Shown here: piece after piece, positions 38,950 through 56,385 of the stretch
Layout of the letters: each line of letters opens with the position of its first letter
How positions within the stretch are numbered: position 1 is the stretch's first letter
Source of the DNA: Candidatus Latescibacterota bacterium
Lineage (GTDB): Bacteria; Latescibacterota; UBA2968; UBA8231
Direction of reading: 5' to 3'
NCBI GenBank assembly: GCA_965204725.1
Contig: OZ242005.1
Span: 4,704,001-4,768,000 of the forward strand
Length of the DNA: 64,000 nt
Notes under the pieces: generated by a model
What the model saw: only the letters and a program-made list of their open reading frames with translations
Told to the model about the DNA's origin: nothing
Database searches by the model: none
Position numbers and translations under genes: made by a program

Positions 38950-39061
38950 GCCTCGCGTCGTCAGGCAAGACGAGCCAAAAGCAACATGAGTGTTAGAACG
39001 CTTCTAACGGCTCTTCCACGCAGCAACGCCGTTGTCATCCACATTAAGGAATAGTTCCCAA

Positions 39062-39916
39062 ATGACGTACGACCCCGATTCGGTGCGACAGTACTTTGAT
39101 GAGTTTTCCGAGCGCGAATGGGATCGGCTCTCTAATTCTATACAAGGAAGAATCAAGTACAGAATTCATCGCCAATTCCTCGAGAAATTCGTCCGCCCTG
39201 AGATGCATGTACTGGATGCTGGATGTGGTCCGGGTCGGTTCGCGATCGATCTAATTAAACTGGGTGCTAATGTTACTCTTGTTGACTTGTCCAATGTACA
39301 ACTTGAGCTTGCTCGAAGCCACTTGAGCAAAGCCAACTTGCTACAGAGGGCCACAGCGATTCAGCAAGGAGATATCACACGCCTTGATACCATCGACGAT
39401 TCGACATTTGATGTTACCGTTTGCTACGGTTCCACAATATCATATACCTGCCAAGAATTTCCTCGGGCACTTGAGGAACTGATGCGCGTAACGCGGCCCG
39501 ACGGACACATAATTGCGAGCGTAACTTCACTGTTTGGCACTCTGCGGCTTGTGGGGCCTCTTGACGCTCGCGACTTCATCCGCTCGGCTGACTGTCACCT
39601 AGACTGGAAAGCCGTATTGTCGGGAGAACAAATCGCGTACACCAAGTCGGGATCTCCTGAGTTTCACCAACCGATGGTCCTATTCACGTCCGCCGGTTTT
39701 CTCTCAGTACTTGAGGACGCTGGCCTGACGGTTATAGAAATGGCCAGTTCTAATCCAATCGTACCATCTTTTACTTCTGTTTCATCAATTGCAGAAAGCG
39801 CGAGCGCCTCAGCAGAACTTGAGCGTTTGGAACTTGCCACCTGCAAGGCCCCAGGGCTGTTGGATGCTGGTGAACATTTGATCGCTGTTGCCAAGAAGAC
39901 CAGCGTTGGAAGCTAG
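39062..39916 (+). CDS. Class I SAM-dependent methyltransferase (lower GC)
   Basis: VLDAGCGPGRF, LVDLS, QGDI and FDVTVCYG. Confidence 0.88.
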   Translation: MTYDPDSVRQYFDEFSEREWDRLSNSIQGRIKYRIHRQFLEKFVRPEMHVLDAGCGPGRFAIDLIKLGANVTLVDLSNVQLELARSHLSKANLLQRATAIQQGDITRLDTIDDSTFDVTVCYGSTISYTCQEFPRALEELMRVTRPDGHIIASVTSLFGTLRLVGPLDARDFIRSADCHLDWKAVLSGEQIAYTKSGSPEFHQPMVLFTSAGFLSVLEDAGLTVIEMASSNPIVPSFTSVSSIAESASASAELERLELATCKAPGLLDAGEHLIAVAKKTSVGS

Positions 39917-40056: not shown

Positions 40057-40617
40057 TCAACGCGCCCCAAAAATCTCGTTCAGATCAACGGCGAAGCCTT
40101 CAAGCGTCGGCGAGGTCAGCGTCTGTCCTTCGCCGTACAGGCCCACCACCTCGAAAGCACCCCCATCCAGCCGCAGCACCGTCACTGTCCGGGCATCTGG
40201 ATCGACCAGCCAGTATTCCCGCACCCCGTGTTTCGCATACAGGGCGCGTTTGAGCGTCCGGTCTCGCCCAGCCGTGGAAGGCGAGAGGATTTCTACGACC
40301 AAGTCCGGTGCGCCGAGGACATTCGTGCCGCCGAGCAACAGGTGCGCTCGCTCGTGGGAGACGAACAGTAGGTCTGGCTGAACTACGTCTGTATTCGACA
40401 ATACTACGTCGCAGGGGGCGAAAAAGACCTCGCCTAGCCCCCTCTCCGTCACGAATTGAGCGAGTCTCCATCCCAATTGGGTGCCAATTCGCTGATGTCC
40501 TACGTTGGGCGCGGGGGCCATGATCAATTCTCCGTCCAATAACTCGTAGCGTTGGTCATCCGGGGTGTGCTGATAGTCCTCATAGGTGAACTTGACAGCC
40601 GGCGTGGGACTGAGCAT
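40057..40617 (-). CDS. Uma2 family endonuclease (DUF820)
   Basis: RYELLDG, VQPD, PDLVVEILSPST and GVREYWLVDP. Confidence 0.92.
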   Translation of the reverse strand: MLSPTPAVKFTYEDYQHTPDDQRYELLDGELIMAPAPNVGHQRIGTQLGWRLAQFVTERGLGEVFFAPCDVVLSNTDVVQPDLLFVSHERAHLLLGGTNVLGAPDLVVEILSPSTAGRDRTLKRALYAKHGVREYWLVDPDARTVTVLRLDGGAFEVVGLYGEGQTLTSPTLEGFAVDLNEIFGAR

Positions 40618-43322: not shown

Positions 43323-44735
43323 GTGCCCCCAAACGTCAGCGAAGAACACGTCCGCAAAATAGTCGAAGAAGTGGTGCAGCGAGTCGTCAGCGGCCAGGAC
43401 GGCCGCGAGGGTGGGGACACCGGCGTCTTCGCGACGATCGACTCGGCAGTCCAAGGCGCGACCCGCGCCCAGCAGCAGTTGGTTGCCTTGTCGCTAGAGC
43501 AACGCAAAAAGATCGTCGAGGCCCTCCGGCATACAGCCCACGCCCACGCCGAGGAGTTTTCGCGACGCGCCCTAGCCGAGACGGGAATGGGGCGGCTCGA
43601 AGACAAAATCGTCAAGCACCAAGTCGCGGCCGACACAACGCCCGGCGTCGAGGACCTAGAGGCGGCTTCGTGGACCGGCGACCACGGGCTGACCGTAGTC
43701 GAAATGGCACCCTACGGGGTCATCGGCGCCGTCACCCCATCGACGCATCCCGTGCCGACGATGGTCAACAATGCCATTTGCATTGTCGCCGCGGGCAATT
43801 CGGTCGTCTTCAACGTCCATCCGGCGGGCAAAGAGGTCTCCATGTTTGCGGTGGGCTTGATCAATCAAGCCATCGTCGCGGCTGGAGGCCCGGCCAACTT
43901 GGTGACCGCGGTCCAAACGCCCACCCTTGAGACAGCCAACGAATTGTTCAACCACCCGGGGGTCCGCCTCCTGCTGGTCACCGGCGGCCCGGGGGTGGCC
44001 AAGGCCGCGCTGGGCAGCCCAAAAAAGGCCATCATCGCCGGCCCGGGCAACCCGCCCGTGGTCGTCGATGAAACGGCCGATTTGGCCAAGGCCGCACGCG
44101 ACATCATCGACGGGGGAGGCTTCGACAACAACATTCTCTGCATCGGCGAGAAGCAGGTCTTTGCCGTCGCTGCAATTGCCGACGAGCTCAAGCGGCTGAT
44201 GGTCCAGTACAATGCCTACGAGCTCGATGCGCGGCAGGTCGAGGCCCTCGCGCAGGCGGCCTTTGTCCAAGGGCCAGACGGGCAGCTCGCCGCCAACCGC
44301 GAGTTGGTGGGGCGCGACGCGGCCGTGCTGGCCGACCGCATCGGCCTCCGGCTCGATTCGTCGCTGCGCCTACTCATTGGCGAGACCGACGCCAATCACG
44401 TTTTCGTGCGCGAGGAGCAGATGATGCCCTTTCTGCCGATCGTGCGGGTCCCCAACATCGATCAAGCCATCCGCGAGGCCGTCATCTCCGAGCACGGCTA
44501 CGGGCACACGGCCGTGATCCATTCGCGCAACATCGAAAACATGCACAACATGGCCCGCGCCGTAGATACCACTATTTTCGTCAAGAATGGGCCTTCCTAC
44601 GCCGGGGTTGGCTTGGGCGGCGAGGGCTTTGGGACGTACTCCATCGCCGGGCCGACGGGCGAGGGCCTGACTTCGCCGCGCACCTTTACCCGCCAGCGCC
44701 GCTGCGCCCTCGTAGATTACTTCCGCATTACCTGA
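43323..44735 (+). CDS. CoA-acylating aldehyde dehydrogenase (EutE/PduP type) with an N-terminal encapsulation peptide
   Basis: ETGMG, PSTHP, TGGPGV, GPGNPP and catalytic FDNNILCIGEK; amphipathic VSEEHVRKIVEEVVQRV. Confidence 0.93.
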   Translation: MPPNVSEEHVRKIVEEVVQRVVSGQDGREGGDTGVFATIDSAVQGATRAQQQLVALSLEQRKKIVEALRHTAHAHAEEFSRRALAETGMGRLEDKIVKHQVAADTTPGVEDLEAASWTGDHGLTVVEMAPYGVIGAVTPSTHPVPTMVNNAICIVAAGNSVVFNVHPAGKEVSMFAVGLINQAIVAAGGPANLVTAVQTPTLETANELFNHPGVRLLLVTGGPGVAKAALGSPKKAIIAGPGNPPVVVDETADLAKAARDIIDGGGFDNNILCIGEKQVFAVAAIADELKRLMVQYNAYELDARQVEALAQAAFVQGPDGQLAANRELVGRDAAVLADRIGLRLDSSLRLLIGETDANHVFVREEQMMPFLPIVRVPNIDQAIREAVISEHGYGHTAVIHSRNIENMHNMARAVDTTIFVKNGPSYAGVGLGGEGFGTYSIAGPTGEGLTSPRTFTRQRRCALVDYFRIT

Positions 44736-45049
44736 TGCTCTTGGGCCAAGTCAAAGGGCACTTGGTTTCCACGGCCAAGGTCCCCAGCCTCAACGGCAAG
44801 AAGCTCTTAGTCGTCGAAATTGCGTCGGTGCGCGAGCACGGTCTGGTGCTGACGGGGCGGGATATGGTCTGCATCGACGCGGTACAAGCGGGCGAGGGCG
44901 AGTTGGTAATTTTAGTGCAGGGCAGCTCGTCGCGGGTCGCCCCGGACTTGGGTGATGTGCCAACCGACGCGGTCATCGTCGGCATCGTCGATTCGCTACA
45001 GGCCATGGGCCAGGACTTCGACTGTCGGGACCTGAGTCGCGAAGGGTAA
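44735..45049 (+). CDS. EutN/CcmL family BMC pentamer (BMC-P)
   Basis: VSTAK..LNGKKLLVV, DAVQAGEGE..GSSSR and DAVIVGIVD. Confidence 0.93.
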   Translation: MLLGQVKGHLVSTAKVPSLNGKKLLVVEIASVREHGLVLTGRDMVCIDAVQAGEGELVILVQGSSSRVAPDLGDVPTDAVIVGIVDSLQAMGQDFDCRDLSREG

Positions 45050-45052
45050 GCG

Positions 45053-45733
45053 ATGGACATTGCACCAGCGGCCGGATTGGACCGCAAGCAGATTGAGGCG
45101 TTGGTGCGCCGGGCGGTGTACGATCGCCTGCCCGACGCTCAGCTAGCGCAGGCACCTCCAGCCCCGAGGCTGGTCGTCAACATGTCCGCCCGCCACGTCC
45201 ACCTCAATCAAAAAGCCCTAAACGCGCTCTTCGGCGCGGGTGCCGAGTTGACCGTCCAGAAGGCCCTGTACCAAGAGGGTGCTTTTGCCGCCGAGCAGAC
45301 GGTATCGGTTTTCGGCCCGCGCAAGCAGGTGATTCCCAACGTCCGCATCCTCGGCCCCTTGCGCGATTACAACCAAGTGGAACTGGCTTTTACGGATGCT
45401 CGCTTTTTGGGCATTGACGCGCCAGTGCGGCTCAGCGGCCACATCGACGGGACGCCCGGCTGCTACTTGGTCGGGCCGGCCGGGGGGCTGACGCTCGAAC
45501 GCGGCGTGATTCGGGCCGCCCGCCACGTCCATCTAAACCCGGCCGAGGCCGCGTACTACGAGGTCGGCCCGGGGGACTTGCTGCGGCTGGTCGTAGAAAG
45601 CGAGCAGGGCGGAGTGCTCGAAGGGTTGATCTGCCGAGTCAGCGACCACGAGCACTTGGAGGTCCACATCGACACGGACGAGGGCAATGCGATTGATTTG
45701 ATGCACGCCCGCAAGGTATATTTGGAGCGTTGA
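45053..45733 (+). CDS. pduL: Phosphate propanoyltransferase PduL with an encapsulation peptide
   Basis: SARHVHL, VRILGP, ARHVHL and HIDTDEGNA; N-terminal LDRKQIEALVRRAVYDRL. Confidence 0.92.
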   Translation: MDIAPAAGLDRKQIEALVRRAVYDRLPDAQLAQAPPAPRLVVNMSARHVHLNQKALNALFGAGAELTVQKALYQEGAFAAEQTVSVFGPRKQVIPNVRILGPLRDYNQVELAFTDARFLGIDAPVRLSGHIDGTPGCYLVGPAGGLTLERGVIRAARHVHLNPAEAAYYEVGPGDLLRLVVESEQGGVLEGLICRVSDHEHLEVHIDTDEGNAIDLMHARKVYLER

Positions 45734-45770
45734 ACGCAAAAATCCGCACAATTACTTCAGGAGGTAAGGG

Positions 45771-46334
45771 ATGTCGGATGCAATAGGCATGGTAGAAACC
45801 GTGGGGCTGGTCGGGGTCGTCGAGGCCGGCGACGCCATGGCCAAGGCCGCCAGCGTCCAGCTTTTGGGCTGGGATAGAGTCGGCTCTGGTTTGGTGACAG
45901 TGTTTTGCGCAGGCGATGTGGCCGCCGTCAAGTCGGCCGTAGATGCCGGTTCAACCGCTGCGGCCAAGGTCGGGGAGGTGCATTCAGTACACGTGATTCC
46001 CCGTCCCCACAGCGAGTTGACGGCCGTCGTGCCCGAGCGCGGCGACAGCAGCGACGGCGATGGCCCTATCCGCGCCTTGGGCCTCATTGAGACGAAGGGC
46101 ACCATCGGCGTGGTCGAAGCAGCCGACGCCATGAGCAAGGCCGCCGATGTGGAGATCGTCAAGCTCCAAGACATCGGCGGCGGGTACATCACCGTCATCG
46201 TCAGCGGCGACGTCGGCTCGGTGCAGGCGTCGGTCAGCGCCGGTGCTGAATCGGCCGAGCGCGTGGGCGAGCTCGTATCGCAGCACGTGATTCCTCGCCC
46301 CCACGACGATCTCGTCGCGCTATACTTGGAATAG
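45771..46334 (+). CDS. Two-domain BMC shell protein
   Basis: Two canonical AIGMVET/ALGLIET...GDV..V...HVIPRPH domains. Confidence 0.92.
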
Positions 46335-46345
46335 AGGAGAGAACA

Positions 46346-46609
46346 ATGAAAGCATTGGGTATGGTCGAGACCCGCGGTTTGGTTTGCGTCGTCGAAGCCC
46401 TCGACGCCATGTTGAAGACCGCCGACGTCAGCTATGCGGGCCAGAAGCGCGTGGGCAGCGGCCTAATCACCGTACTGGTCGAAGGCGACGTGGCGGCCGT
46501 CAAAGCGGCCGTGGATGCGGGAGCGCAAGCCGCCCAGCGCATCGGCGAGTTGCGCAGCGTCCACGTGATTCCCCGCCCGACTGAAGGACTGACCGATCAC
46601 CTCGGTTAG
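46346..46609 (+). CDS. Single-domain BMC shell protein (BMC-H)
   Basis: [38 protein letters not shown]. Confidence 0.95.
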
Positions 46610-46625
46610 CTAGGGGATCGAGGCT

Positions 46626-47042
46626 TTGCACATCGACGTTCCGGTCGTCACCGGCGACTTACTCGGGCGCGAACACAAGGGCGAGCGGGTACTCAGCGTA
46701 TCCCCCAGCGCCATCCTGACGCCAACGGCTTGGGATTACATCCGCCAGCACCGGTTGCAGGTGCAGCGCGGCGAGCCGGTCGCGGACGCGGGTCGGTGCG
46801 AGCAGCCCGACCGCCCCTGCGGCTGCGAGCACGAGGAGTTTGGTTCGGGGTTCGTCGAGCCGGAACGTTGCGGTGATTGCGCGGTCCACCAGCGCAAGAA
46901 GGCGGGCGATCCCGAGGCGAGTTGCGCTGGCTGCAATCGCTACAAGACGCTTTTGCAACAAATCGACAAGGGCCAAGCCACCGCCCCAGAAGCCTTAGTC
47001 GAGCAGATCACCGAGCTAGTCATTCACCGGCTGGCAGACTAA
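46626..47042 (+). CDS. BMC-associated Cys-rich hypothetical protein with a C-terminal encapsulation-like peptide
   Basis: N-terminal AILTPTAWDYIR domain, seven Cys (C, CxC, CxxC, CxxC) and PEALVEQITELVIHRL. Confidence 0.7.
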   Translation: MHIDVPVVTGDLLGREHKGERVLSVSPSAILTPTAWDYIRQHRLQVQRGEPVADAGRCEQPDRPCGCEHEEFGSGFVEPERCGDCAVHQRKKAGDPEASCAGCNRYKTLLQQIDKGQATAPEALVEQITELVIHRLAD

Positions 47043-47045
47043 GCT

Positions 47046-47630
47046 ATGGCGGACGCCCCGGCAGTCGGCATGATCGAGGTGGAGGGCGTGGCCGCGGCCA
47101 TTATGGGCGCAGATGCGGCCTGCAAGGCGGCGGACGTGAAGCTCGCCGGTTGGGCGTCAATCGGCGGTTACACCACGGCCTTTTTCACCGGATCAATTAG
47201 CGATGTGGCCGCCGCGCTGCACAGCGGTGAAGAAGCCGCCCGAGCAATAATAGAACACGTGGTAGCCGTGCCCCTCCACCAACCCGCCGCTCCCTGCCAC
47301 CATTTTGTCGATTTTCCGGCCGAAGCCCAAGGCGACTTCCCGGCTGGGGCCTTGGGGTTGGTCGAAACGCGCGGCTACGGGGTCCACATCCACATCAACG
47401 ATCAGATGGTCAAGACAGCGGCCGTCGAGGTAATCAACGTGCTGACGGTCCACGACCGCGTGGTGTGTTCGCTGATATTGGGAGACATCGGGGCTGTCAC
47501 CGAAGCCATCGCCGTCGCGCAAAAGCTGCTCGCCGGCTGCGAGCACTTGCTGGGCACGGCCCTGATCCCGCAGCCGCGGCCAGAGGTCTTAGCCGTTTAT
47601 GCCGCGCCGATGGGAGCGGGCGGTGGCTAG
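47046..47630 (+). CDS. Divergent two-domain BMC shell protein
   Basis: Domains AVGMIEVEG..DAACKAADV and ALGLVETRG..DQMVKTAAV. Confidence 0.88.
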   Translation: MADAPAVGMIEVEGVAAAIMGADAACKAADVKLAGWASIGGYTTAFFTGSISDVAAALHSGEEAARAIIEHVVAVPLHQPAAPCHHFVDFPAEAQGDFPAGALGLVETRGYGVHIHINDQMVKTAAVEVINVLTVHDRVVCSLILGDIGAVTEAIAVAQKLLAGCEHLLGTALIPQPRPEVLAVYAAPMGAGGG

Positions 47631-48771
47631 CGGGGCAATCGGCGTGCTGGAGACGCGCGGCATGGCGTCGCTCATGGCTTCCACCGACGCCATGCTCAAG
47701 GCCGCGGACGTCCAACTCTGCGGTCGGCACGGCATTGGTTCGGGTTGGCTCACCGCCGTAATCGCCGGTCGAGTGGCGGATGTAGAGGCGGCCCTTGGCG
47801 TCGGCGAGGTCGAGGCAAACCGCACGGGCGAGCTGATCGGTGCCCAAGTGGTGCCGCGGCCGGAGGCAGGCGTCATGGACGCCATGCCCCACGCAACGGG
47901 CCTCGGCGCCGAACAGGTCCAGCCGCGGGCGATTGGCTTATTGGAAACGCAGGGCCTGACGCCGCTAGTGGCTGGTGCCGACGCCATGCTCAAGGCCGCC
48001 CAAGTGGAGCTGGGAGGTTGGGCCTTCATCGGCGGTGCTCTGTGCCACGCGCCGGTCTTTGGCGATGTGGCGGCCGTGCAAGCGGCACTAGCAGCCGGCC
48101 GCCAAGCAGCCGAGCGGATTGGCTCGGTGTACGCGACCCTCGTTTTACCCCAGCCCAGCGCGGGGCTAGGTCCTCTGGTGCCGACCGCGCCAGTGACCGA
48201 GCCGTGCTCCACCGGTGCCTTGGGCCTCATAGAGACCATTGGGTACGCCGTGGTCGTGGGCAGTGCCGACGCCATGCTCAAAGCCGCGGATGTCCAAATC
48301 GAGTGCTTGAGCATCGGCAGCGGTGGGCGGATTGCCGCGCTGGCCACCGGCCAGCTCGATGACGTGCAGGCCGCCGTGCGCGCCGGTGCCGAGGCCGCCA
48401 CAGCCTTGGGGCAGCTCGATGCCTCGGCCGTAGTCTCTGGGCCTGATCCCATGCTAGTCGCCCGCTTTGCCGCCGCGGCCGAAGGGCTTGAGCCGGGAGC
48501 GCGGCAGGCCATGGGGCTGATTGAGACGCGCAGCACCGTGGCCTTGGTGCGGGCTGTAGATCGGATGCTCAAGGCCGCGGCCATCGAATACGAGGGGGCC
48601 TATAAAGTGGGATACTACTTGACGGCCGCCGTCGTCCGCGGCGATGTCGGTGCCGTGCAAGTCGCCATAGAGGCCGGCCGGCAGGAGGCCGTCGCCCACG
48701 GAGAATTGGTCTCGGCCTACGCCATTCCGCAGCTCTACAGCGGTCTCGAAGGCCGCCTGCCGCACGTTTAG
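47623..48771 (+). CDS. Four-domain BMC shell protein
   Basis: Four tandem BMC repeats (AIGVLETRG, AIGLLETQG, ALGLIETIG, AMGLIETRS), each followed by D(A/R)MLKAA. Confidence 0.88.
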   Translation: MASGAIGVLETRGMASLMASTDAMLKAADVQLCGRHGIGSGWLTAVIAGRVADVEAALGVGEVEANRTGELIGAQVVPRPEAGVMDAMPHATGLGAEQVQPRAIGLLETQGLTPLVAGADAMLKAAQVELGGWAFIGGALCHAPVFGDVAAVQAALAAGRQAAERIGSVYATLVLPQPSAGLGPLVPTAPVTEPCSTGALGLIETIGYAVVVGSADAMLKAADVQIECLSIGSGGRIAALATGQLDDVQAAVRAGAEAATALGQLDASAVVSGPDPMLVARFAAAAEGLEPGARQAMGLIETRSTVALVRAVDRMLKAAAIEYEGAYKVGYYLTAAVVRGDVGAVQVAIEAGRQEAVAHGELVSAYAIPQLYSGLEGRLPHV

Positions 48772-48784
48772 CGAGGACGCGAAA

Positions 48785-49948
48785 ATGATTCGGATTGACG
48801 ACGCAGTGATTACCGCTCAGACCTTGGAGACCCGCCTAGCGGGCGAACGGCAGGTCGAGATCGGCCCCGGGGCTAAGCTGACGCCCTCGGCGCAGGATTT
48901 TTTGCGCGTCCAAGGCGTTGAGCTCGTCCGCCGCGAAGCCGGCCACCAAGCCCCGCCAACGCCAGCACCAGCGGTTCCTCGCGCGGCCGGCCGCAAGGCA
49001 TTTGCTGGCATCTTCTGTCCCAATGTCGTCCTTTTCGACAGCCAGAACGCGATCAACCACGCCGAGATGGAGCGCTACATCAACTGGTTGATTGAGGTTG
49101 GGATCCACGGGCTGTATCCCAACGGCAGCACGGGCGAATTCGCACGCCTGTCGCGCGAGGAACGCCAAGACGTGGTGCGCTTGGTCTGCGAGGTCAACAA
49201 GGGGCGTGTCCCGGTGCTGGCCGGCGCCAGCGAGGCCAACGTGCGCGACGTGCTCGAGATGGCCGAATACTACGCCGCGCTCGGCGTGGATGCCATTGCG
49301 GTGATGCCCCCCTATTACTACGAAATTTCCACCGAAAGCCTCTTCGAGTACTTCGCCGAAATTGCCGAAGAATCGCCGCTGGACATCCTGCTGTACAACA
49401 TCCCGCAATTTACCCAAGAGCTGTCGCTAAACTTGATGGAGCGGCTCTTGCCCTACGAGCGGATCTTCGGCACCAAGGACTCCAGCCGCGACCTGCCGCG
49501 GCTGCTCAACACCATGCACCGCCTGCGCCAACAACGATCCGACTACGTGGTAATGACCGGTTGCGAGGAGATCGTATTTCCCTCGGTGATGATGGGGGCC
49601 AGCGGGGGCACCATCGCCACTTCGGGCATCGTCCCGGAAGTCATCGTCGAGCTTTATGAAAAGGCTGTAAGCGGCGACATTGAGCGGGCCCGCGAGCTGC
49701 AATACCGCATCCTCGACCTAATTAACCTCATGCTCTTAGGCGTCAACTTCCCAGAGGGCTTCAAGACCGGGGTGGCGGCCCGCGGCTTCGACGTAGGCCC
49801 CGCACGCACATCGAGCAGCGCGGCCGAGCAGGAGTACCTGCTCAAACTGGAGGCCCAAATCAACTGTGTCCTCGCGGATATGGGCTATCCCGTCCACGGC
49901 CCCCGCGCCTGCCCGACCACCAACCTGCCGTCGATCGTCGGGCGCTAG
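48785..49948 (+). CDS. DapA/NAL-family class I aldolase with a BMC-type N-terminal extension
   Basis: GSTGE, LYNIP and Schiff-base GTKDSS; ~70-aa N-terminal extension (AKLTPSAQDFLR plus a Pro/Ala linker). Confidence 0.88.
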   Translation: MIRIDDAVITAQTLETRLAGERQVEIGPGAKLTPSAQDFLRVQGVELVRREAGHQAPPTPAPAVPRAAGRKAFAGIFCPNVVLFDSQNAINHAEMERYINWLIEVGIHGLYPNGSTGEFARLSREERQDVVRLVCEVNKGRVPVLAGASEANVRDVLEMAEYYAALGVDAIAVMPPYYYEISTESLFEYFAEIAEESPLDILLYNIPQFTQELSLNLMERLLPYERIFGTKDSSRDLPRLLNTMHRLRQQRSDYVVMTGCEEIVFPSVMMGASGGTIATSGIVPEVIVELYEKAVSGDIERARELQYRILDLINLMLLGVNFPEGFKTGVAARGFDVGPARTSSSAAEQEYLLKLEAQINCVLADMGYPVHGPRACPTTNLPSIVGR

Positions 49949-51022
49949 ATGGCCCTCACCGGCGCGTGTGTGTTGGTCGTCGGGGCCGGTATCATCGGCC
50001 GCTCAACAGCCTATTTCCTCGCGCAACAAAACGCGCAGGTCACCCTGCTCGACGAGGGAATCGCCGCTGGCTCGCCCACGAGCCGGGCCTCTTTGGGCGT
50101 CCTTACCCACTGCAACGGCGGCGACAATCCCTACGCCCAGCTTTTGCGCGACGGCCATGCCCTACACGCCCGGCTGGCCCGCGACCTCAACGAAGACCTA
50201 GGAGCAGACGTGGGCTGGCGTCCCCTCGGCGGCATCGAGCTTTTTGCCGACCCATCCCAGCTAGAAGCGGTGTGGCACTTCAACCGCGCCCGCGGCTGTC
50301 GGGTCGAGCGGCTCGACGCCCGGGCCTTGTGCGCTGCGGAGCCGGCGTTGGATGGCGACGAGGGCCTGTATTTTGCCGACGATCACCGGGTGGACCCCCT
50401 CAAACTGGGCGCAGTGCTTTGGGCGGCTGCCGCCCAGCGGGATGCGTCCGCCGCTTGGGGCGAGCGCGTCTGGCGCGTGGCCCAAGCGGGCGAAACCGTT
50501 GAGGTCGCGACCACTCGCGGAACGCATCGCGCCGATTTTGCGGTCTTGGCCGCTGGGGCGTGGACCAGCGGCTTGGCCGCCCAACTCGGAGCCCGAGTCG
50601 CGCTGCGCCCAGTGCGGGGCCAACAAGCGCGTTTTACTGGCGCCCCGCTGCGCCACCTCGTGCGGGTCAACGGACGCCACCTCATTCCAGACGGCGGCGA
50701 AACGGTCGTGGGCTCGACGGTGGAGGAGGTCGGCTTTCGGTTGGAAACGACCCGCGCGGCCGCAGGGCAGTTCGCCGCAGAGGTACGCTCTGCGCTGGGG
50801 CGGCCCTTGCCCTTGTCGCGCCAGCAAGCCGGCCTGCGGCCCAAGCCCCGGGGCGGGCGGCCGCTCATCGGCCCGCTGACGGATGCGCCGCGGGTTTTTG
50901 TCGCGGCTGGGCACTACAAAAACGGCGTCTTGCTAGGCCCGATTACGGGCCAAATCGTCGCTCGCTGGATCGCCGCGGGAACCCCGGGGCGCGACATGCG
51001 CCGCTTCGCACCCGAGCGTTGA
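49949..51022 (+). CDS. FAD-dependent oxidoreductase (glycine oxidase/D-amino acid oxidase family)
   Basis: VGAGIIG, LAAGAW, PVRGQ, AGLRP and GHYKNGVLLGP. Confidence 0.88.
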   Translation: MALTGACVLVVGAGIIGRSTAYFLAQQNAQVTLLDEGIAAGSPTSRASLGVLTHCNGGDNPYAQLLRDGHALHARLARDLNEDLGADVGWRPLGGIELFADPSQLEAVWHFNRARGCRVERLDARALCAAEPALDGDEGLYFADDHRVDPLKLGAVLWAAAAQRDASAAWGERVWRVAQAGETVEVATTRGTHRADFAVLAAGAWTSGLAAQLGARVALRPVRGQQARFTGAPLRHLVRVNGRHLIPDGGETVVGSTVEEVGFRLETTRAAAGQFAAEVRSALGRPLPLSRQQAGLRPKPRGGRPLIGPLTDAPRVFVAAGHYKNGVLLGPITGQIVARWIAAGTPGRDMRRFAPER

Positions 51023-51055
51023 ATTTATCACCACCTAACACCATTGAGGTTAAAC

Positions 51056-51997
51056 ATGCCATTGCAAAAAGAAGACCTACTCGCCGCGCTAAACTCGGTC
51101 ACCTCCATCCCGGTGGTCCCTTTTCGCGGCGGGCGCATCGACTACGACGCCCATGCCAAGAACATCAACTACCTAATGGAGAACAACCACTTAGACGGCG
51201 GCCGGCCCCGGGTGATTGGCATCGCCGGCACCAGCTTGGTCCACCACATTAGCGCGGCCGAGCAAGTGCGGCTATTGGGATTTACCGGGGAACTGATGGG
51301 CGGGCGCGGGGTGCTCATGGCCGGGATTGCCCCCAATCCGGTTGGGGATGCCGAGCGGTTGATCGAGCGGGAGGCCGCGCTCGAATATCCCCCGGATGTC
51401 TATCTCGTCATGCCGCTTACTGGCGTGGCCAATCCAGCGGGCATTTTTGCGTACTACGCGGATTTTGCCGAGCGGTTGGGACGTTCGTGCGGGGCCAAGT
51501 TGCTCTACTACCTGCGCAACCCAGCCGAGTGCGAGATCGCCGTGCGGCTGATGAACGAGTCCGAGCACTTCGTAGGGCTGAAGATCGGCACCACGGTCGA
51601 GGACGTCGAGCCGATTGTCGCGGGGGTGGAAGAGGGAGCAGCGCTGGTGATATGGGGCGTGGGGGACCGCTCAACCGGGCCGGCCGAGCGCGGCACCAAA
51701 GGCCACACATCGGGAATTAACGTAGCTTTCGCCCGCGCCTCCGACGAGATCAACAACGCCCAGCGCCGCGGCGATTTTGCGACCTCCCAGCAGATCGAAA
51801 ACCAACTCGCGGCCCTAGAGGAGATTCGCTTCCGCAACGGCCGCATGTACAACTATTCAGCCGTAGTTGAGGCCATGCACTTGGGCGGATTCAGCGATGT
51901 AGATGGCGGCGAGGGCGGCCCGTTCAACCCGCGAGTGCCGGCGGAAGTAGCCGAGGAAGTGGCCGCGGCCATAGCCGACATTATACCCTACCACTAA
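51056..51997 (+). CDS. Divergent DapA-family protein (5-dehydro-4-deoxyglucarate dehydratase-like)
   Basis: SIPVVPF..IDYDAH, YYLR, FVGLKIG and GHTSG. Confidence 0.7.
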   Translation: MPLQKEDLLAALNSVTSIPVVPFRGGRIDYDAHAKNINYLMENNHLDGGRPRVIGIAGTSLVHHISAAEQVRLLGFTGELMGGRGVLMAGIAPNPVGDAERLIEREAALEYPPDVYLVMPLTGVANPAGIFAYYADFAERLGRSCGAKLLYYLRNPAECEIAVRLMNESEHFVGLKIGTTVEDVEPIVAGVEEGAALVIWGVGDRSTGPAERGTKGHTSGINVAFARASDEINNAQRRGDFATSQQIENQLAALEEIRFRNGRMYNYSAVVEAMHLGGFSDVDGGEGGPFNPRVPAEVAEEVAAAIADIIPYH

Positions 51998-52293
51998 ACC
52001 CGGCGCAGCCGCTCTAGATAGGCCGCCCATTCAACCGGGAGCCGGTGCTGCTTTTGGCTATTGCAGTGCTTGCAGCAAGGGACCACGTTGGACTTGGTGG
52101 TTTGGCCGCCGCGGATGAGCGGCACCACGTGGTCCATGGTCAGCTCCTCGGGCGCAAACGACCGCTCGCAGTAGTGGCACTGGCCGGCGGCCCGTTCGCG
52201 CTTCCACCACTGAGAGCGGCGCAGCATCTTGGCCTTGGTTTTCTCTCGGGCGACGTGCTCGGCGTCGGCTGGGACGAAGTAGCTATTTTCCAT
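51994..52293 (-). CDS. HNH endonuclease (small, Zn-binding)
   Basis: CHYC, LTMDHVVPLIRGG and NVVPCCKHCNSQK. Confidence 0.9.
   Translation of the reverse strand: MENSYFVPADAEHVAREKTKAKMLRRSQWWKRERAAGQCHYCERSFAPEELTMDHVVPLIRGGQTTKSNVVPCCKHCNSQKQHRLPVEWAAYLERLRRV
52233..52293. repeat. Direct repeat copy 1 (5' end of the HNH gene)
   Basis: 60/61 identical to 54472-54532. CTTAGCCAGCCGCT is also repeated (52308-52321 and 54533-54546). Confidence 0.9.
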
Positions 52294-52320
52294 GGGAGAG
52301 CAAGATGCTTAGCCAGCCGC

Positions 52321-52734
52321 TTACTCTGCTTGGTATCCCAAGTCCCACACGCGCAGAAGATCGCGACACCCCTGTTCAAAAGTTTGCGTAAAATCGATTA
52401 ACTGAATGGAAAACAGCGTCCAAGAAAGTTGCCCATAATTACAGGGTTGGTGCAAAAGGGGAATCATTTTGTTTTCAAAGTGATTCAGATAAAAAGAAAA
52501 CATCAGCTCTTTCTTTACCCAAGCGGATCCCACTGCATTTGGCGACAAGACAAGCACAAACCAATCGCAGCGGAGAATCGCTTCACCAATTTCATCATGC
52601 CATTGCTGTCCCCCAAGGACATTGGATCGACTGTACCAGACGCGAAGCCCATGCCGCCGCATCATGTCGACCAACTCTTCTACAAACGGCCGATCTCGGT
52701 CAGAATGCGAAAGAAAAATTTCCGTTGGCAACAT
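52321..52734 (-). CDS. TIR domain protein (TIR_2)
   Basis: IFLSHSDRD, FVLVLSPNAVGSAWVKKEL (catalytic-position Glu) and MIPLL. Confidence 0.9.
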   Translation of the reverse strand: MLPTEIFLSHSDRDRPFVEELVDMMRRHGLRVWYSRSNVLGGQQWHDEIGEAILRCDWFVLVLSPNAVGSAWVKKELMFSFYLNHFENKMIPLLHQPCNYGQLSWTLFSIQLIDFTQTFEQGCRDLLRVWDLGYQAE

Positions 52735-52737
52735 AAT

Positions 52738-53184
52738 TCAAGAGATTGATGCAGATGTAGGCGGGGAGCTTGCTATATCGTTTTCCAGAATTGCCTGTGC
52801 GATTTGTTTAATCCCTTCTTCTTCCTCGTCGTATTCACCCATATCGATTATATGTAAGAGCCGAAGAATCCATGGAATATCTTCTTTGGGTATCTCTTCT
52901 GAATCGCCAACAAGGACGGGGATCAGGCGTTTGCGATAGTTTTGTTCGCCAAGAGCATACTCAATTTCCCGGCGTACCCAACTTGAACGCAGAGCGTCGG
53001 CGGTCAGGAGGACCACCATGGCTTCTGACTCTTTCAATGCTTGCGCTACCTTCTCCGTCAAAGTATCCTCAGACAGGATTTCACGGGTGGCATCCCACAC
53101 ATCAAGGCCAGCTTTTTCTAAGCCTACCGCGACCTTCTTGACAAAAGGCTCATCCTTATACGCATGGCTAATAAAGACTTTCAT
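52738..53184 (-). CDS. TIR domain protein (TIR_2)
   Basis: VFISHAYKD, SSWVRREIEYA and RLIPVLV. Confidence 0.9.
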   Translation of the reverse strand: MKVFISHAYKDEPFVKKVAVGLEKAGLDVWDATREILSEDTLTEKVAQALKESEAMVVLLTADALRSSWVRREIEYALGEQNYRKRLIPVLVGDSEEIPKEDIPWILRLLHIIDMGEYDEEEEGIKQIAQAILENDIASSPPTSASIS

Positions 53185-53207
53185 AATCCAAACTATCCTT
53201 TCGTCCG

Positions 53208-53705
53208 CTAAAGATCCAGTAAAGTAAAAATACTAGCCAATAAGAAATACAACAAACCAAAGCATACCGGCACCCATTTCTCTACACCCGTAAGCGGAGA
53301 GTATAGCTTTCTATCTTTCCCTTTGCCGAGGGCTATCCATTCAGTATCGTAAGGAGCAACAGGTAGCATTTGCTCAAGTGCGAGAATGACCTTGTACTTA
53401 CCGCTGTTTAGCTGCCGATACGAACACACGACGCGCCACCACACGTAACAGAGGAGCATCAAGGCAACAAAAGGTACAAAGATGAGCAACGCTGGTTTCA
53501 GTATGTCCTCTTTGAGCAGCACGATAAAGGCGATAGTCAGCGTCGTATGCACACCGACGAAAAACGAGTTTGCTAGCATCCTTCGCGCACTGATCCTATC
53601 AGCCATTTCGACGTATAGCTTGTACTGGTCGAAAAGGTGATTCTCAAATTCGGCACCATAAGTATCTTTACTTTGGCGTAGCAAGTTTAGGCTGTTTTTG
53701 CTCAC
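53208..53705 (-). CDS. Three-TM membrane protein (RipA-like family), candidate effector
   Basis: DQYKLYVEMADRISARRMLANSFF, SYRQLNSGKYKVI..LE and three hydrophobic segments. Confidence 0.75.
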   Translation of the reverse strand: MSKNSLNLLRQSKDTYGAEFENHLFDQYKLYVEMADRISARRMLANSFFVGVHTTLTIAFIVLLKEDILKPALLIFVPFVALMLLCYVWWRVVCSYRQLNSGKYKVILALEQMLPVAPYDTEWIALGKGKDRKLYSPLTGVEKWVPVCFGLLYFLLASIFTLLDL

Positions 53706-53771
53706 TGTTTTTCTTCCTCGTTGATTTATGATGTATCCAATGGGTTATCGTAAAACATTTCTACTTTTTAG

Positions 53772-54188
53772 CTACAAAGACCATCTGCGAACAGCAGCTA
53801 CGATACTACTTGTTTGCCAACCAACCATTTCCTTGGCAACGTTTTGCACTTCAATCGGCATACGTTCTTGACCCCAAGGGGCAACTCCGATAATTGGCTT
53901 TCCATAGGATATGGCGATGTCGATTTCTTCCTGAATCCACCTTCTGTGATTGACATACATGCCAGAAACCACAAGAAAGCAGTTAATAGGGGCGATTTGT
54001 CGGTCAAGTGCTTGACGTAGTTCCCCATCTGTCTTTGTTTCAAGCGGATCGTGCTCTGGAACTGAGTAATTGCGCCAATAGAAGTAAGGTGCTTCGGAGA
54101 GAAACATCTCAAGGCGGTAGTACTCGGAGTTTTCGACTCTATGCCATACATGGCTTAAAAAAAGATCATACGTTTTAAGTTTTGGCAT
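53772..54188 (-). CDS. ThsB-like TIR protein (MTH538/DUF1863)
   Basis: LFLSHVW, WRNYSVP, SGMY..WIQEEI, KPIIGV.PWG and VGW..SSIV. Confidence 0.88.
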   Translation of the reverse strand: MPKLKTYDLFLSHVWHRVENSEYYRLEMFLSEAPYFYWRNYSVPEHDPLETKTDGELRQALDRQIAPINCFLVVSGMYVNHRRWIQEEIDIAISYGKPIIGVAPWGQERMPIEVQNVAKEMVGWQTSSIVAAVRRWSL

Positions 54189-54471
54189 ATCTACACTTCC
54201 TTGATCATAACGACCGAATCTTCCGAACCGGCCATACCCCGTTCACGCTTTTGCGGAACATGCTTTCACGGGGCGGGCTTTGAAAATATATGGAACGTGG
54301 CCTACTACATCCTCCGTGTACACGGGGTGCCTTATGCCTAAGCGGGCTACGGGCACTGTTCATTCAAGGCGGCTTTAAGAAAGATACAAGAGCAGCATGG
54401 CCTGTTCAAGTGCTATGTTGGGCATTCACTCAGGGGCAGTGCCACGCCTTGTGTGTTGTGCAGCCCCTTGT

Positions 54472-54533: not shown

Positions 54534-55832
54534 TTAGCCAGCCGCTGAAGCCGCCTCGCGCAGCGCCTGCCGCGTCCCCGCCAAGTCGAAACAGGCCTCT
54601 TGATTGCCGCGCATAAAGCGGGTCGCCAGCTCTATGGCTTCGGCTTCGGTCAGCAGGCCGTCATCTACTTCGCCTTGGAGGGCGCGGGCGAGCCAGCGAC
54701 GCGCCTGAATCGCATAGGCCACCGAGCTGGTCGGCCAGCCCGTGTCGCCGCCAAAGGCAAAGAGCTTGGAAGCGGGAGCGGCGTGGATAAAGCGGCGCAC
54801 AAAGTCGCACGCGCTGGCCGGGTCGATGGACCACGCCCAGCAGAGATCGGCATACACGTTGCGGTAGTGTTTGGCCAGCGCGATCAATTCGCTCGAATAG
54901 GGATAGGCAATGTGCATCAGCACAAAGCGGCAGTCGAGGTAGCGCGCCAGCAAGGGGCAGAGGTGACCGCTTTTAATGCGATCGACGGGCATGCGGTCGT
55001 TGCCAGCGTAGTAGCCGGTGTGGATCTTGAACGGCAGCTCGTACTCGATTGCCAGCTCGGTGCCCCGCGCCCAGCACCAGTCGCCCAAAAGCAACCGGCT
55101 CGGCTCGTCGAGCTCTGCGCCTTGGAGCAGGCGTTGGAGGACGCGCTCGGCGTCGGCGTCCGCACGTTCTTCCCAGCGCAGCGTGCGGTTGTACGCGTGC
55201 TGGGCTTTGACCGCTATGGCATGGGAGCCGTGCTCGGCGAAGATGGCTTCCATGCCCTGCTTGAGGCTGGCCAAGTCGGCCACGACCACTCCGGTTTCTC
55301 GCTCAATGGCCTCGGGGTCGATTTGGCCGTTGCAAAAGGTGGCCCAAGACAAGTCGTAGAGGAAAAAGTCCACGCCCGACTCGTCGGGCGGGCAGGGCCA
55401 AGAGAAGTCGTCGGTTTGCACGTGGTCTAGCCGACCTATTTGGCGGAGTAGCTCGTATCGCCCGCCGGGCCGCCGCCAAGCGCTGAGCTTTTCTTGCGCC
55501 TTGTGCAGCTCGGCTGCGCTAAAATCGGCCATGCCATAGACCTCGTGCGCGAGGATGCACACGGCCTCGCCGTAGCCGGTGAAGCGGATGGCCGCAAAGG
55601 CCGAGCGAATGCGATCAAAGCGCGCACCAACGTCTGGATCGGAGGCATCGTTGAGCTTGTGCAAGTCTTCGCTCGTGGCCCCAGCGGCGATTAGGTCGGC
55701 GGGCACGTAGTTGCCAAAAAGGTCTTGCAAAATGTCCGGGCCATTCTCAATCCAGTCGCGCTCCCGGCGGAGGTGTTCGTGCGTGTCGATTAGCAGCGTG
55801 TCGGCTAGGTGTTGGCACAAGTCTGTGGTCAT
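54534..55832 (-). CDS. Amidohydrolase family protein
   Basis: IDTHEH, KIHTG, VLMH, DLCW and FGGD. Confidence 0.85.
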   Translation of the reverse strand: MTTDLCQHLADTLLIDTHEHLRRERDWIENGPDILQDLFGNYVPADLIAAGATSEDLHKLNDASDPDVGARFDRIRSAFAAIRFTGYGEAVCILAHEVYGMADFSAAELHKAQEKLSAWRRPGGRYELLRQIGRLDHVQTDDFSWPCPPDESGVDFFLYDLSWATFCNGQIDPEAIERETGVVVADLASLKQGMEAIFAEHGSHAIAVKAQHAYNRTLRWEERADADAERVLQRLLQGAELDEPSRLLLGDWCWARGTELAIEYELPFKIHTGYYAGNDRMPVDRIKSGHLCPLLARYLDCRFVLMHIAYPYSSELIALAKHYRNVYADLCWAWSIDPASACDFVRRFIHAAPASKLFAFGGDTGWPTSSVAYAIQARRWLARALQGEVDDGLLTEAEAIELATRFMRGNQEACFDLAGTRQALREAASAAG

Positions 55833-55879: not shown

Positions 55880-56308
55880 ATGGATTGGCATCCCTTCATC
55901 GTCCACTATCCCATCGCGCTCTTGTCCCTGAGTCCCCTGTGTGATCTAGGCGCACTGTGGCTGGGTCGCCGCGCCGGGCATCATCTGGCGTACGGCTTGC
56001 TGGTGTTAGGGGTACTAGCCGCGACGACCGCCGTGCTCAGCGGCAACGCGGCTGCGGCCACGGCTTGGGACGGACCAGCCGCCGCGCCATTAGCCACTCA
56101 CGAAGCCCTCGCCACTTGGACCTTGCTCTTGGGATTGGGGGTCGTTCTCGGGCGCTTGCCCCTGCATCTCAGGGGGCGGCTCGAAGGATGGCCGCTCTAT
56201 GTGTGGATTGCCCTCGGCGTCCTGATCGGCGGCTTGGTCTTGTGGACGGGCTACTGCGGCGGCGAACTCGTGTATATCCACGGCTTGGGCGTACGGGCCG
56301 ATCGCTGA
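55880..56308 (+). CDS. DUF2231 membrane protein
   Basis: HPFIVHYPIAL, a central His (THE) and GGELVY. Confidence 0.85.
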   Translation: MDWHPFIVHYPIALLSLSPLCDLGALWLGRRAGHHLAYGLLVLGVLAATTAVLSGNAAAATAWDGPAAAPLATHEALATWTLLLGLGVVLGRLPLHLRGRLEGWPLYVWIALGVLIGGLVLWTGYCGGELVYIHGLGVRADR

Positions 56309-56385
56309 TCGGCGGCTGGTTGACGCAGTTTGTTTGGCTTATTTTCGAGGGGCTGACCAGCACTCAACGCCCCGAGGAGCACCCT

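Follow-up and report, generated by a model that had tools for sequence, protein, structure and literature searches.

Bacterial microcompartments (BMCs) are classed by the signature enzyme that makes their aldehyde and are built from a few kinds of shell tile. An operon of Candidatus Latescibacterota bacterium, contained in a stretch of 64,000 nucleotides (GCA_965204725.1, contig OZ242005.1, positions 4,704,001 to 4,768,000; referred to below as the window), raises the question of which aldehyde such an organelle handles when its shell genes are followed by a class I aldolase of the DapA family, and whether the locus represents a microcompartment type of its own. The operon (window positions 43323-51997, + strand) consists of eleven tightly spaced genes, whose intergenic spacing ranges from a 32-nt overlap up to 37 nt (Table 1). 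With a probability of roughly 60%, it encodes the core of an aldehyde-oxidising metabolosome akin to the PVM and PVM-like systems, together with a specialised module whose class I aldolase would act on keto-deoxy sugar acids.

Probable association of the aldolase with the shell

Open reading frames (ORFs) were assigned to families with Pfam and NCBIfam, and solved relatives were taken from searches of the PDB. A scan for related aldolase loci, performed with one genome per species, yielded 77 loci, in which the aldolase is 65-93% identical across its full length, N-terminal domain included. The gene for a four-domain shell protein lies directly upstream of the aldolase gene in 74 of them, and the other three lack upstream sequence; the conservation beside shell genes that the initial annotation had proposed to check in relatives is thus seen in 74/74 loci. 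The nearest named records are Latescibacterota metagenome-assembled genomes (aldolase up to 93% identical).

The catalytic domain (residues 73-359) is nearest to the KD(P)G aldolase of Picrophilus (4uxd, 1e-36) and to E. coli YagE (1.9e-35). Its Schiff-base lysine, tyrosine and Ser-Thr-Gly motifs, listed in the initial annotation as GSTGE, LYNIP and KDSS, are present, align with those of 4uxd (to which overall identity is moderate) and are conserved in 72 sequences, and the substrate loop reads like that of a 2-keto-3-deoxygluconate (KDG) aldolase. The protein did not reach the dapA cut-off (TIGR00674, 158.3 bits vs 206.15) or the nanA cut-off.

Residues 1-50 of the aldolase form a distinct, strongly conserved domain that is followed by a Pro-rich linker; a conserved C-terminal extension is also present. 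The N-terminal domain is common to the Cys-rich protein of the operon (BLASTP, 5e-10), and among the 60,746 open frames of the genome a profile of the domain recovered only the aldolase and the Cys-rich protein (8.2e-25 and 4.2e-24; next best 0.11). In the E. coli eut region (251 frames), the profile matched the N-termini of EutT (2.6e-4, Z=4300) and, weakly, of EutQ (0.11). In Salmonella, the N-terminal helices H1 and H2 of EutQ are described as binding the shell (bioRxiv 10.1101/2024.05.17.594633). Residues 1-50 may accordingly be viewed as a candidate shell-association module, and the synteny together with this BMC-associated domain supports the view that the aldolase is truly tied to the shell.

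The Cys-rich protein is composed of four parts, namely the N-terminal domain, a disordered linker, CxxC...CxxC knuckles and a conserved amphipathic helix at the C-terminus. Its AlphaFold2 model has a pLDDT of 85-94 for residues 1-50, values below 50 for residues 51-76 and a helix at residues 121-137, and five cysteines are invariant in 18 sequences (C67, C82, C85, C100 and C103, i.e. two CxxC knuckles and one more cysteine). A Foldseek search with the model found no PDB structure at E<=0.001, and a search of the protein atlas returned matches below 0.9 only. In having a short structured domain at the N-terminus, then a flexible linker and finally a helix, the protein recalls the EutQ N-terminal linker, in which shell-binding helices H1/H2 are connected by a linker to the cargo-binding helices H3/H4 (bioRxiv 10.1101/2024.05.17.594633). 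Unlike EutQ, the Cys-rich protein has cysteine knuckles and no cupin domain, and its N-terminal domain, whose likeness to EutQ is weak (E 0.11), is also fused directly to an enzyme, the aldolase. The protein probably links shell and cargo.

Substrate class and proposed pathway

FucH (L-2-keto-3-deoxyfuconate aldolase), KD(P)G aldolase and YagE/YjhH are likewise Schiff-base aldolases of the DapA/NAL family; they split keto-deoxy sugar acids into pyruvate and lactaldehyde, glyceraldehyde or glycolaldehyde. None of them is reported with a shell-associated N-terminal domain or next to shell genes, in contrast to the aldolase of the window. L-2-keto-3-deoxyfuconate aldolase is described as forming pyruvate and L-lactaldehyde through a Schiff base (PMC11199699), and keto-deoxy-pentonate (KDP) aldolase as forming pyruvate and glycolaldehyde (PMC6336799). 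Because the window's aldolase is closest to aldolases of keto-deoxy sugar acids, keto-deoxy-rhamnonate/fuconate, already suggested in the initial annotation, appears to be the best-supported substrate class; the class was set by family likeness to 4uxd and YagE, the FucH sequence standing outside the comparison.

In the proposed mechanism, the aldolase would be held at or in the shell via its N-terminal domain and would cleave a 2-keto-3-deoxy sugar acid into pyruvate and an aldehyde. The likeliest substrate would be 2-keto-3-deoxy-L-fuconate (KDF) or -rhamnonate (KDR), which would give L-lactaldehyde; glycolaldehyde or glyceraldehyde could alternatively arise from pentonates or hexonates. A class II aldolase encoded elsewhere in the genome would release the same L-lactaldehyde from fuculose or rhamnulose 1-phosphate. 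The aldehyde would then be converted to acyl-CoA by the acylating aldehyde dehydrogenase (ALDH) and to acyl-phosphate by PduL, whereby CoA would be freed, and an acetate kinase, also encoded elsewhere, would use the acyl-phosphate to generate ATP. A tile made of a two-domain and the four-domain shell protein may act as gate or docking site, with the Cys-rich protein as the putative link between shell and cargo.

The enzymes of the core carry features that would suit encapsulation. The ALDH, whose closest solved structures are PduP-type CoA-acylating enzymes (5jfl, 1.6e-131), begins with a conserved amphipathic helix that resembles an encapsulation peptide and is followed by a linker (51 sequences), and PduL has a conserved N-terminal helix and a Pro/Ala linker. 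The single class II aldolase of the genome (G000:C1:1672557; L093 1402-2196), a stand-alone gene, ends in a linker and an amphipathic helix that is likewise encapsulation-peptide-like and similar to that of the class II aldolases in PVM-like loci of related genomes. Because this second aldolase also looks targeted and the aldehyde of the PVM family is lactaldehyde (PMC4207490), L-lactaldehyde from KDF or KDR is put forward as the shared aldehyde, tentatively and at somewhat less than even odds. Given the unusual aldolase family and the unusual shell pair, the organelle probably burns sugar acids by an undescribed route. If the DapA-family aldolase is indeed targeted cargo, a pyruvate-releasing, non-phosphorylative sugar-acid route joins the encapsulated chemistries.

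A candidate six-domain shell tile

The four-domain gene is preceded by a gene for a two-domain BMC protein (194 aa in the window), which adjoins it in 69 loci with a gap of -35 to +12 nt in 68/69, start codons being script-chosen. The four-domain ORF measures 379-395 aa in 70/71 loci, and its start codon lies up to about 8 codons later in relatives. A model of the complex of the two proteins reached an ipSAE of 0.75 (runs 0.72, 0.79 and 0.75), as compared with 0.00 for the best of three controls, which were unrelated proteins rather than other BMC proteins. The mark used had been reached by 58/80 solved complexes and by 2/110 mismatched pairs. Contact agreement between runs was at least 90% and the pLDDT of the partner at least 87. 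In the model, domains 1 and 4 of the long chain contact domains 2 and 1, respectively, of the short chain, which closes a six-domain ring.

The six domain positions are mutually 18-46% identical in the window. Each of them best matches its own position in 29/29 other loci and falls into a clade of its own (support 0.37-1.0). The six loops at the site of the BMC-H pore loop are all different, each is conserved, and they contain His, Arg, Cys, Trp and Tyr. These clades and pore loops, which are independent of the complex model, fit a fixed asymmetric tile. By the model, the two proteins probably combine into a single asymmetric tile of six domains that would be the module's dedicated gate or docking site.

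The five hexagonal tile kinds listed in a catalogue of microcompartment loci include none with four domains, and the known tiles described there hold 6x1 or 3x2 domains (PMC8217296). No description of four-domain BMC proteins was found in the literature by phrase search, the matches to 'four BMC' being other matters as judged from the listings. The family comprises at least 727 clusters (E<=1e-20) that carry only generic or wrong names; the nearest NCBIfam name of the window's protein is CcmO. As in BMC-T tandem proteins of the PduT type and in CcmO, fused non-permuted BMC domains would fill a hexagonal tile. Here, however, a four-domain protein has a constant two-domain neighbour, an arrangement suggestive of a 4+2 heterodimer in which all six pore loops differ. 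A fuller proposal can be formulated in which the pair is a 1:1 heterodimer tile with six pore loops and a sixth kind of hexagonal building block, serves as gate or dock for the aldolase with its EutT/EutQ-like domain, and is part of a portable plug-in that gives PVM-type organelles a non-phosphorylative sugar-acid route; taken as a whole, it is possible, though we would not bet on it. If true, the 4+2 pairing breaks the 6x1 and 3x2 rule for hexagonal tiles, and a fully asymmetric pore would be of interest to transport studies and shell engineering.

Related loci and genome context

Two layouts were distinguished among the related loci. Type A corresponds to the window and comprises the full operon, the ALDH and the second DapA-family protein (second DapA) being seen in 50 loci each and the flavoprotein in 57. 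Type B (18 loci) is limited to the shell pair (two- and four-domain genes) and the aldolase gene, which are followed by other genes. In one type B genome (L048), the remaining BMC domains are encoded in a separate second locus with the order PduL, a 470-aa gene, BMC-H, BMC-P, ALDH, BMC-P, BMC-P, class II aldolase (with C-terminal helix) and acetate kinase, and four further type B genomes have the same main locus (5/5 examined: PduL, BMC-H, three BMC-P, ALDH, class II aldolase and acetate kinase). The ALDH of the window is 57.6% identical to that of the L048 main locus and 58-59% identical across the PVM-like main loci of related genomes. The 470-aa protein between PduL and BMC-H in the five main loci (L103 15178-16590, - strand; L184-L187) has no Pfam family. 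Neighbours of the aldolase module in L048 are two genes of the galactonate dehydratase family, one of which scores above the curated cut-off (396.6 bits vs 311), and a sugar-dehydrogenase-like gene. A 314-aa gene 3' of the aldolase in the same genome was considered as a relative of the second DapA and rejected, as it encodes a CehA/McbA-family metallohydrolase.

The genome that contains the window has a size of 5.43 Mb and is 94% complete. All nine of its BMC domains are encoded in the operon, and a whole-genome scan identified the BMC-H gene of the operon as the sole single-domain BMC gene. Of its four BMC-P genes, one lies in the operon and three form a satellite triplet beside lytB (G000:C1:2589366-2590161; L014 9349-10168, - strand), with no organelle enzymes nearby. 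In about 20 related loci that are more distant, lytB-linked BMC-P genes immediately precede the operon; the triplet is therefore taken as part of the same system, and its interpretation as a separate one was rejected. A single acetate kinase gene (G000:C1:1011991) adjoins a gene for a ManD-like dehydratase.

The four-domain protein was detected in 83/168 genomes of the phylum in the collection examined (E<=1e-40), mainly in two families (64/75 and 16/22). The module is therefore common enough to bear on sugar use by these uncultured bacteria.

Accessory genes

Three genes of the locus lie outside the core and the aldolase module. The flavoprotein, encoded after the aldolase in 57 loci but in none of the 18 type B loci, has glycine oxidases as its closest solved relatives (4ysh, 2.3e-28), misses the ThiO cut-off (TIGR02352, 159.6 bits vs 250.8) and lacks a terminal extension. 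The second DapA contains the aligned Schiff-base lysine (K180), which is invariant as are the tyrosines Y155/Y156, and ends in a Gly/Pro linker and an amphipathic helix. By profile search its closest solved relatives are 3e96 and 3d0c, for which no function is known; a protein atlas search returned generic DHDPS clusters only. In metagenome contigs, the flavoprotein gene is found upstream in 34/80 relatives of the second DapA. Relatives that are 55-60% identical occur without flavoprotein or shell genes in 16 contigs having at least 3.9 kb of upstream sequence, in two of which they stand among genes for an aldo-keto reductase, a protein of the galactonate dehydratase family and another DHDPS-family protein.

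The FAH-family protein, divergent to the operon, scores 220.9 bits with NF053535 (2,4-didehydro-3-deoxy-L-rhamnonate hydrolase), under the cut-off of 500, and its gene adjoins the operon in 31-33 related loci. According to PMC6336799, KDP dehydratases come from the DHDPS/NAL or FAH/MhpD families; diketo-acid hydrolases are a further activity of the FAH family. As these families supply keto-deoxy-pentonate dehydratases, a sugar-acid role for the second DapA and the FAH protein is possible; the sugar-acid scheme has no place for the flavoprotein. Flavoprotein and second DapA are considered accessory because they are absent where the aldolase module is a satellite, and the FAH protein, the flavoprotein and the second DapA are treated as an accessory unit that the aldolase module does not require.

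Weighing of alternative readings

The flavoprotein gene begins right at the aldolase stop codon (49948/49949), and the initial annotation had considered that the flavoprotein might make the aldolase substrate by oxidising a hydroxy-amino acid. In such an amino-acid route, a gamma-hydroxy D-amino acid or D-hydroxyproline would be oxidised to a 4-hydroxy-2-oxo acid or a cyclic imine, which the two DapA proteins would cleave or deaminate in the shell, yielding pyruvate and an aldehyde such as aminoacetaldehyde, glyoxylate, formaldehyde or alpha-ketoglutarate semialdehyde. The persistence of the gene order in the 57 loci mentioned above, the glycine/D-amino-acid oxidases among the closest solved relatives of the flavoprotein and the linker plus C-terminal helix of the second DapA, possibly a shell-targeting element, speak for it. 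The pairing of a DAO-family with a DapA-family enzyme is moreover reminiscent of bacterial hydroxyproline catabolism. The claim is nevertheless weakened by the 18 loci in which aldolase and shell pair occur without flavoprotein or second DapA, the latter of which was not found at E<=1e-10 in 5/5 type B genomes. A metagenome contig (L148) carries the FAH protein, the flavoprotein and the second DapA together without shell genes, and relatives of the second DapA lack all of these companions in the 16 contigs described above, in two of which they stand among sugar-acid genes. With no Pro_racemase-family epimerase found in the genome (94% complete) and no terminal extension on the flavoprotein, an amino-acid route is judged unlikely. 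Ordinary cytosolic functions of the aldolase, flavoprotein and second DapA, for example in lysine or thiamine synthesis, with the class II aldolase encoded elsewhere as the sole signature enzyme, are very improbable. Relatives of the aldolase are annotated as 'dihydrodipicolinate synthase', ThiO is the best family of the flavoprotein, and several downstream neighbours reflect housekeeping synteny (HNH, Lon-domain protein, DtxR-like repressor, ZnuA transporter). Yet the aldolase stays 3' of the shell pair even in satellites far from the core, shares its N-terminal domain only with the operon's Cys-rich protein and has a substrate loop of the KDG aldolase kind, and both it (for dapA and nanA) and the flavoprotein (for ThiO) remain under the respective cut-offs.

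A different sugar acid is a rather better candidate, though still an improbable one. The aldolase would then act on keto-deoxy acids derived from pentonates (KDX/KDA) or hexonates (KDG/KDGal), the confined aldehyde would be glycolaldehyde or glyceraldehyde, and the second DapA and the FAH protein would be similar to keto-deoxy-pentonate dehydratases. The best solved relatives of the aldolase (KD(P)G aldolase and YagE), the module neighbour in L048 that scores as a galactonate dehydratase, the ManD-like dehydratase beside the acetate kinase gene, the glycolaldehyde released by KDP aldolase and the families that supply KDP dehydratases (PMC6336799) all agree with this view. Against it, the co-occurring class II aldolases with encapsulation-peptide-like tails point to a shared aldehyde, which in the PVM family is lactaldehyde (PMC4207490); family-level matches cannot separate deoxyhexonates from hexonates or pentonates.

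The reading of the operon as a PVM-related metabolosome that uses keto-deoxy sugar acids has to be held against several observations that weaken it. Genes for a sugar-acid dehydratase, sugar dehydrogenase, lactonase, transporter or regulator are missing from the operon, so that the substrate is assigned from family likeness and from the neighbours of the module in a single clade of related genomes. The eleven operon ORFs include neither an alcohol dehydrogenase nor another NAD+ recycler, in line with what the initial annotation had stated for alcohol dehydrogenase, and four Fe-ADH genes elsewhere in the genome lack a clear encapsulation peptide. Flavoprotein and second DapA are co-operonic in 50-57 loci and have no role under a sugar-acid scheme. 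Encapsulation peptides were called by eye from conserved helices, the EutQ match is weak, and BLASTP of the N-terminal domains against the EutQ N-terminus of E. coli gave no match, the profile search alone having found it. Because BMC hexamers have been solved many times and the controls were unrelated, the score of the complex model may reflect likeness rather than partner choice. At 82-93% mutual identity, the five type B genomes are closely related and hence amount to about one observation. A promoter and terminator scan of the operon was no better than shuffles.

Gene content and surroundings of the locus

All eleven ORFs of the tight + strand run reported in the initial annotation are present at their coordinates. 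The metabolosome core recognised there is confirmed by PRK15398 and PRK15070, both above their cut-offs, and the locus encodes both shell folds (pfam00936 with nine BMC domains, pfam03319 with one EutN_CcmL domain) as well as the CoA-acylating ALDH and the phosphotransacylase PduL expected of a metabolosome. The number of four shell genes (45771-48771) was correct, and they amount to 2+1+2+4 = 9 BMC domains; the Cys-rich ORF exists but had to be repositioned between the BMC-H gene and the second two-domain gene. Both domains of the 187-aa protein are of the ordinary non-permuted kind and are 49-64% identical to the neighbouring BMC-H. The stated absence of acetate kinase and class II aldolase holds for the locus and fails for the genome, which has one gene for each.

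Table 1. Features of the locus and its surroundings (window coordinates).
Feature	Coordinates	Strand	Assignment and remarks
880-aa ORF	36030-38672	-	M28-peptidase/DUF4910-like regions; C-terminal aminoglycoside 3-N-acetyltransferase-family domain (8.1e-45)
Class I SAM methyltransferase	39032-39916	+	
Uma2-family putative endonuclease	40057-40617	-	
FAH-family protein, 278 aa	42384..43220	-	Pfam FAA_hydrolase 2.4e-76; divergent to operon
CoA-acylating aldehyde dehydrogenase (PduP-like), 470 aa	43323..44735	+	Aldedh; PRK15398 652.9 bits vs cut-off 403
BMC-P pentamer protein, 104 aa	44735..45049	+	Pfam EutN_CcmL 2.3e-24
PduL phosphotransacylase, 226 aa	45053..45733	+	Pfam PTAC 8.8e-65; PRK15070 221.2 bits vs cut-off 209
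Two-domain BMC protein, 187 aa	45771..46334	+	Pfam BMC, 2 stretches, 3.7e-52
BMC-H hexamer protein, 87 aa	46346..46609	+	Pfam BMC 4.8e-27
Cys-rich protein, 138 aa	46626..47042	+	No Pfam family
Second two-domain BMC protein, 194 aa	47046..47630	+	Pfam BMC, 2 stretches; unusual conserved pore loops
Four-domain BMC protein, 390 aa from ATG at 47599	47599..48771	+	Pfam BMC, 4 stretches, 2.3e-73
DapA/KDG-aldolase-family class I aldolase, 387 aa	48785..49948	+	Pfam DHDPS 1.3e-57, residues 73-359
ThiO-like FAD oxidoreductase (flavoprotein), DAO family, 357 aa	49949..51022	+	Pfam DAO 8.2e-53
Divergent DapA-family protein (second DapA), 317 aa	51044..51997	+	Pfam DHDPS 2.8e-10
HNH endonuclease, small	51994-52293	-	Converges on operon end
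TIR-domain protein	52738-53184	-	In low-GC stretch
8xMP membrane protein	53208-53705	-	In low-GC stretch
Amidohydro_2-family protein	54534-55832	-	No NCBIfam model match
Sulfatase	55957-57786	+	

The HNH gene is found in the same place in 54 related loci, and its position may reflect lineage synteny. The downstream HNH, Lon-domain protein, DtxR-like repressor and ZnuA-type ABC transporter genes were considered as pathway genes and set aside, being read as lineage synteny. Positions 52000-54200 are of low G+C content (0.485 vs about 0.63), and this stretch looks like a small defence island inserted past the HNH gene; in one related locus (L016) a different, unique ORF occupies its position. Upstream of the FAH gene, the methyltransferase and Uma2 genes lie in another stretch of lower G+C content (0.557).

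Comparison with known microcompartment types

The initial annotation had proposed an uncharacterised BMC type with a class I aldolase as signature enzyme. The shell-tied aldolase survives from this proposal, whereas a clearly separate type with a sole signature enzyme does not, in view of the targeted-looking class II aldolase, the acetate kinase and the BMC-P triplet of the genome and of the module's place as a satellite of a PVM-like locus in 5/5 relatives. Rather than a wholly new BMC type, the locus is better seen as a PVM-related metabolosome that has an additional class I aldolase module. Its newest features are the DapA-family aldolase, apparently targeted to the shell, and the candidate 4+2 tile.

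With PVM and PVM-like systems, the organelle has in common the class II aldolase with its encapsulation-peptide-like tail and an ALDH of the same kind. By the definition of the PVM type in PMC4207490, the balance of shell genes agrees (four BMC-P genes vs one BMC-H, albeit with three multi-domain BMC genes too), whereas the signature class II aldolase and the ancillary acetate kinase lie outside the locus. The locus differs further by the addition of two two-domain and one four-domain BMC genes, the Cys-rich protein, the class I aldolase, the flavoprotein and the second DapA. The ORFs scanned around the locus included no DeoR-family regulator and no lactate/malate-dehydrogenase-like gene; no genome-wide search for DeoR was made.

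The main texts of PMC8217296 and PMC4207490 contain no mention of pfam00701, DapA or dihydrodipicolinate, the supplementary locus tables of the former catalogue lying outside this scope, and the locus may already be listed in those tables under a label of unknown function. No relevant paper joining bacterial microcompartments and dihydrodipicolinate was found. In the SPU type, a class I Schiff-base aldolase likewise feeds an aldehyde to an ALDH/PduL core (PMC8217296). The SPU enzyme belongs to the DeoC family (pfam01791), acts on a sugar phosphate and is accompanied by RpiB, whereas the aldolase of the window belongs to the DapA family (pfam00701), lacks RpiB as a companion and would release pyruvate from unphosphorylated 2-oxo acids. 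Satellite EUT modules of the HO and SPU types (EutABC plus an EutL-type shell protein) provide a further parallel, since in these modules a signature enzyme is accompanied by a shell protein of its own and the two form a portable extension of the main organelle to another substrate (PMC8217296). The shell pair and aldolase behave as such a satellite module in 5/5 type B genomes; enzyme and shell proteins are different ones, and the window's module forms part of the core operon itself.

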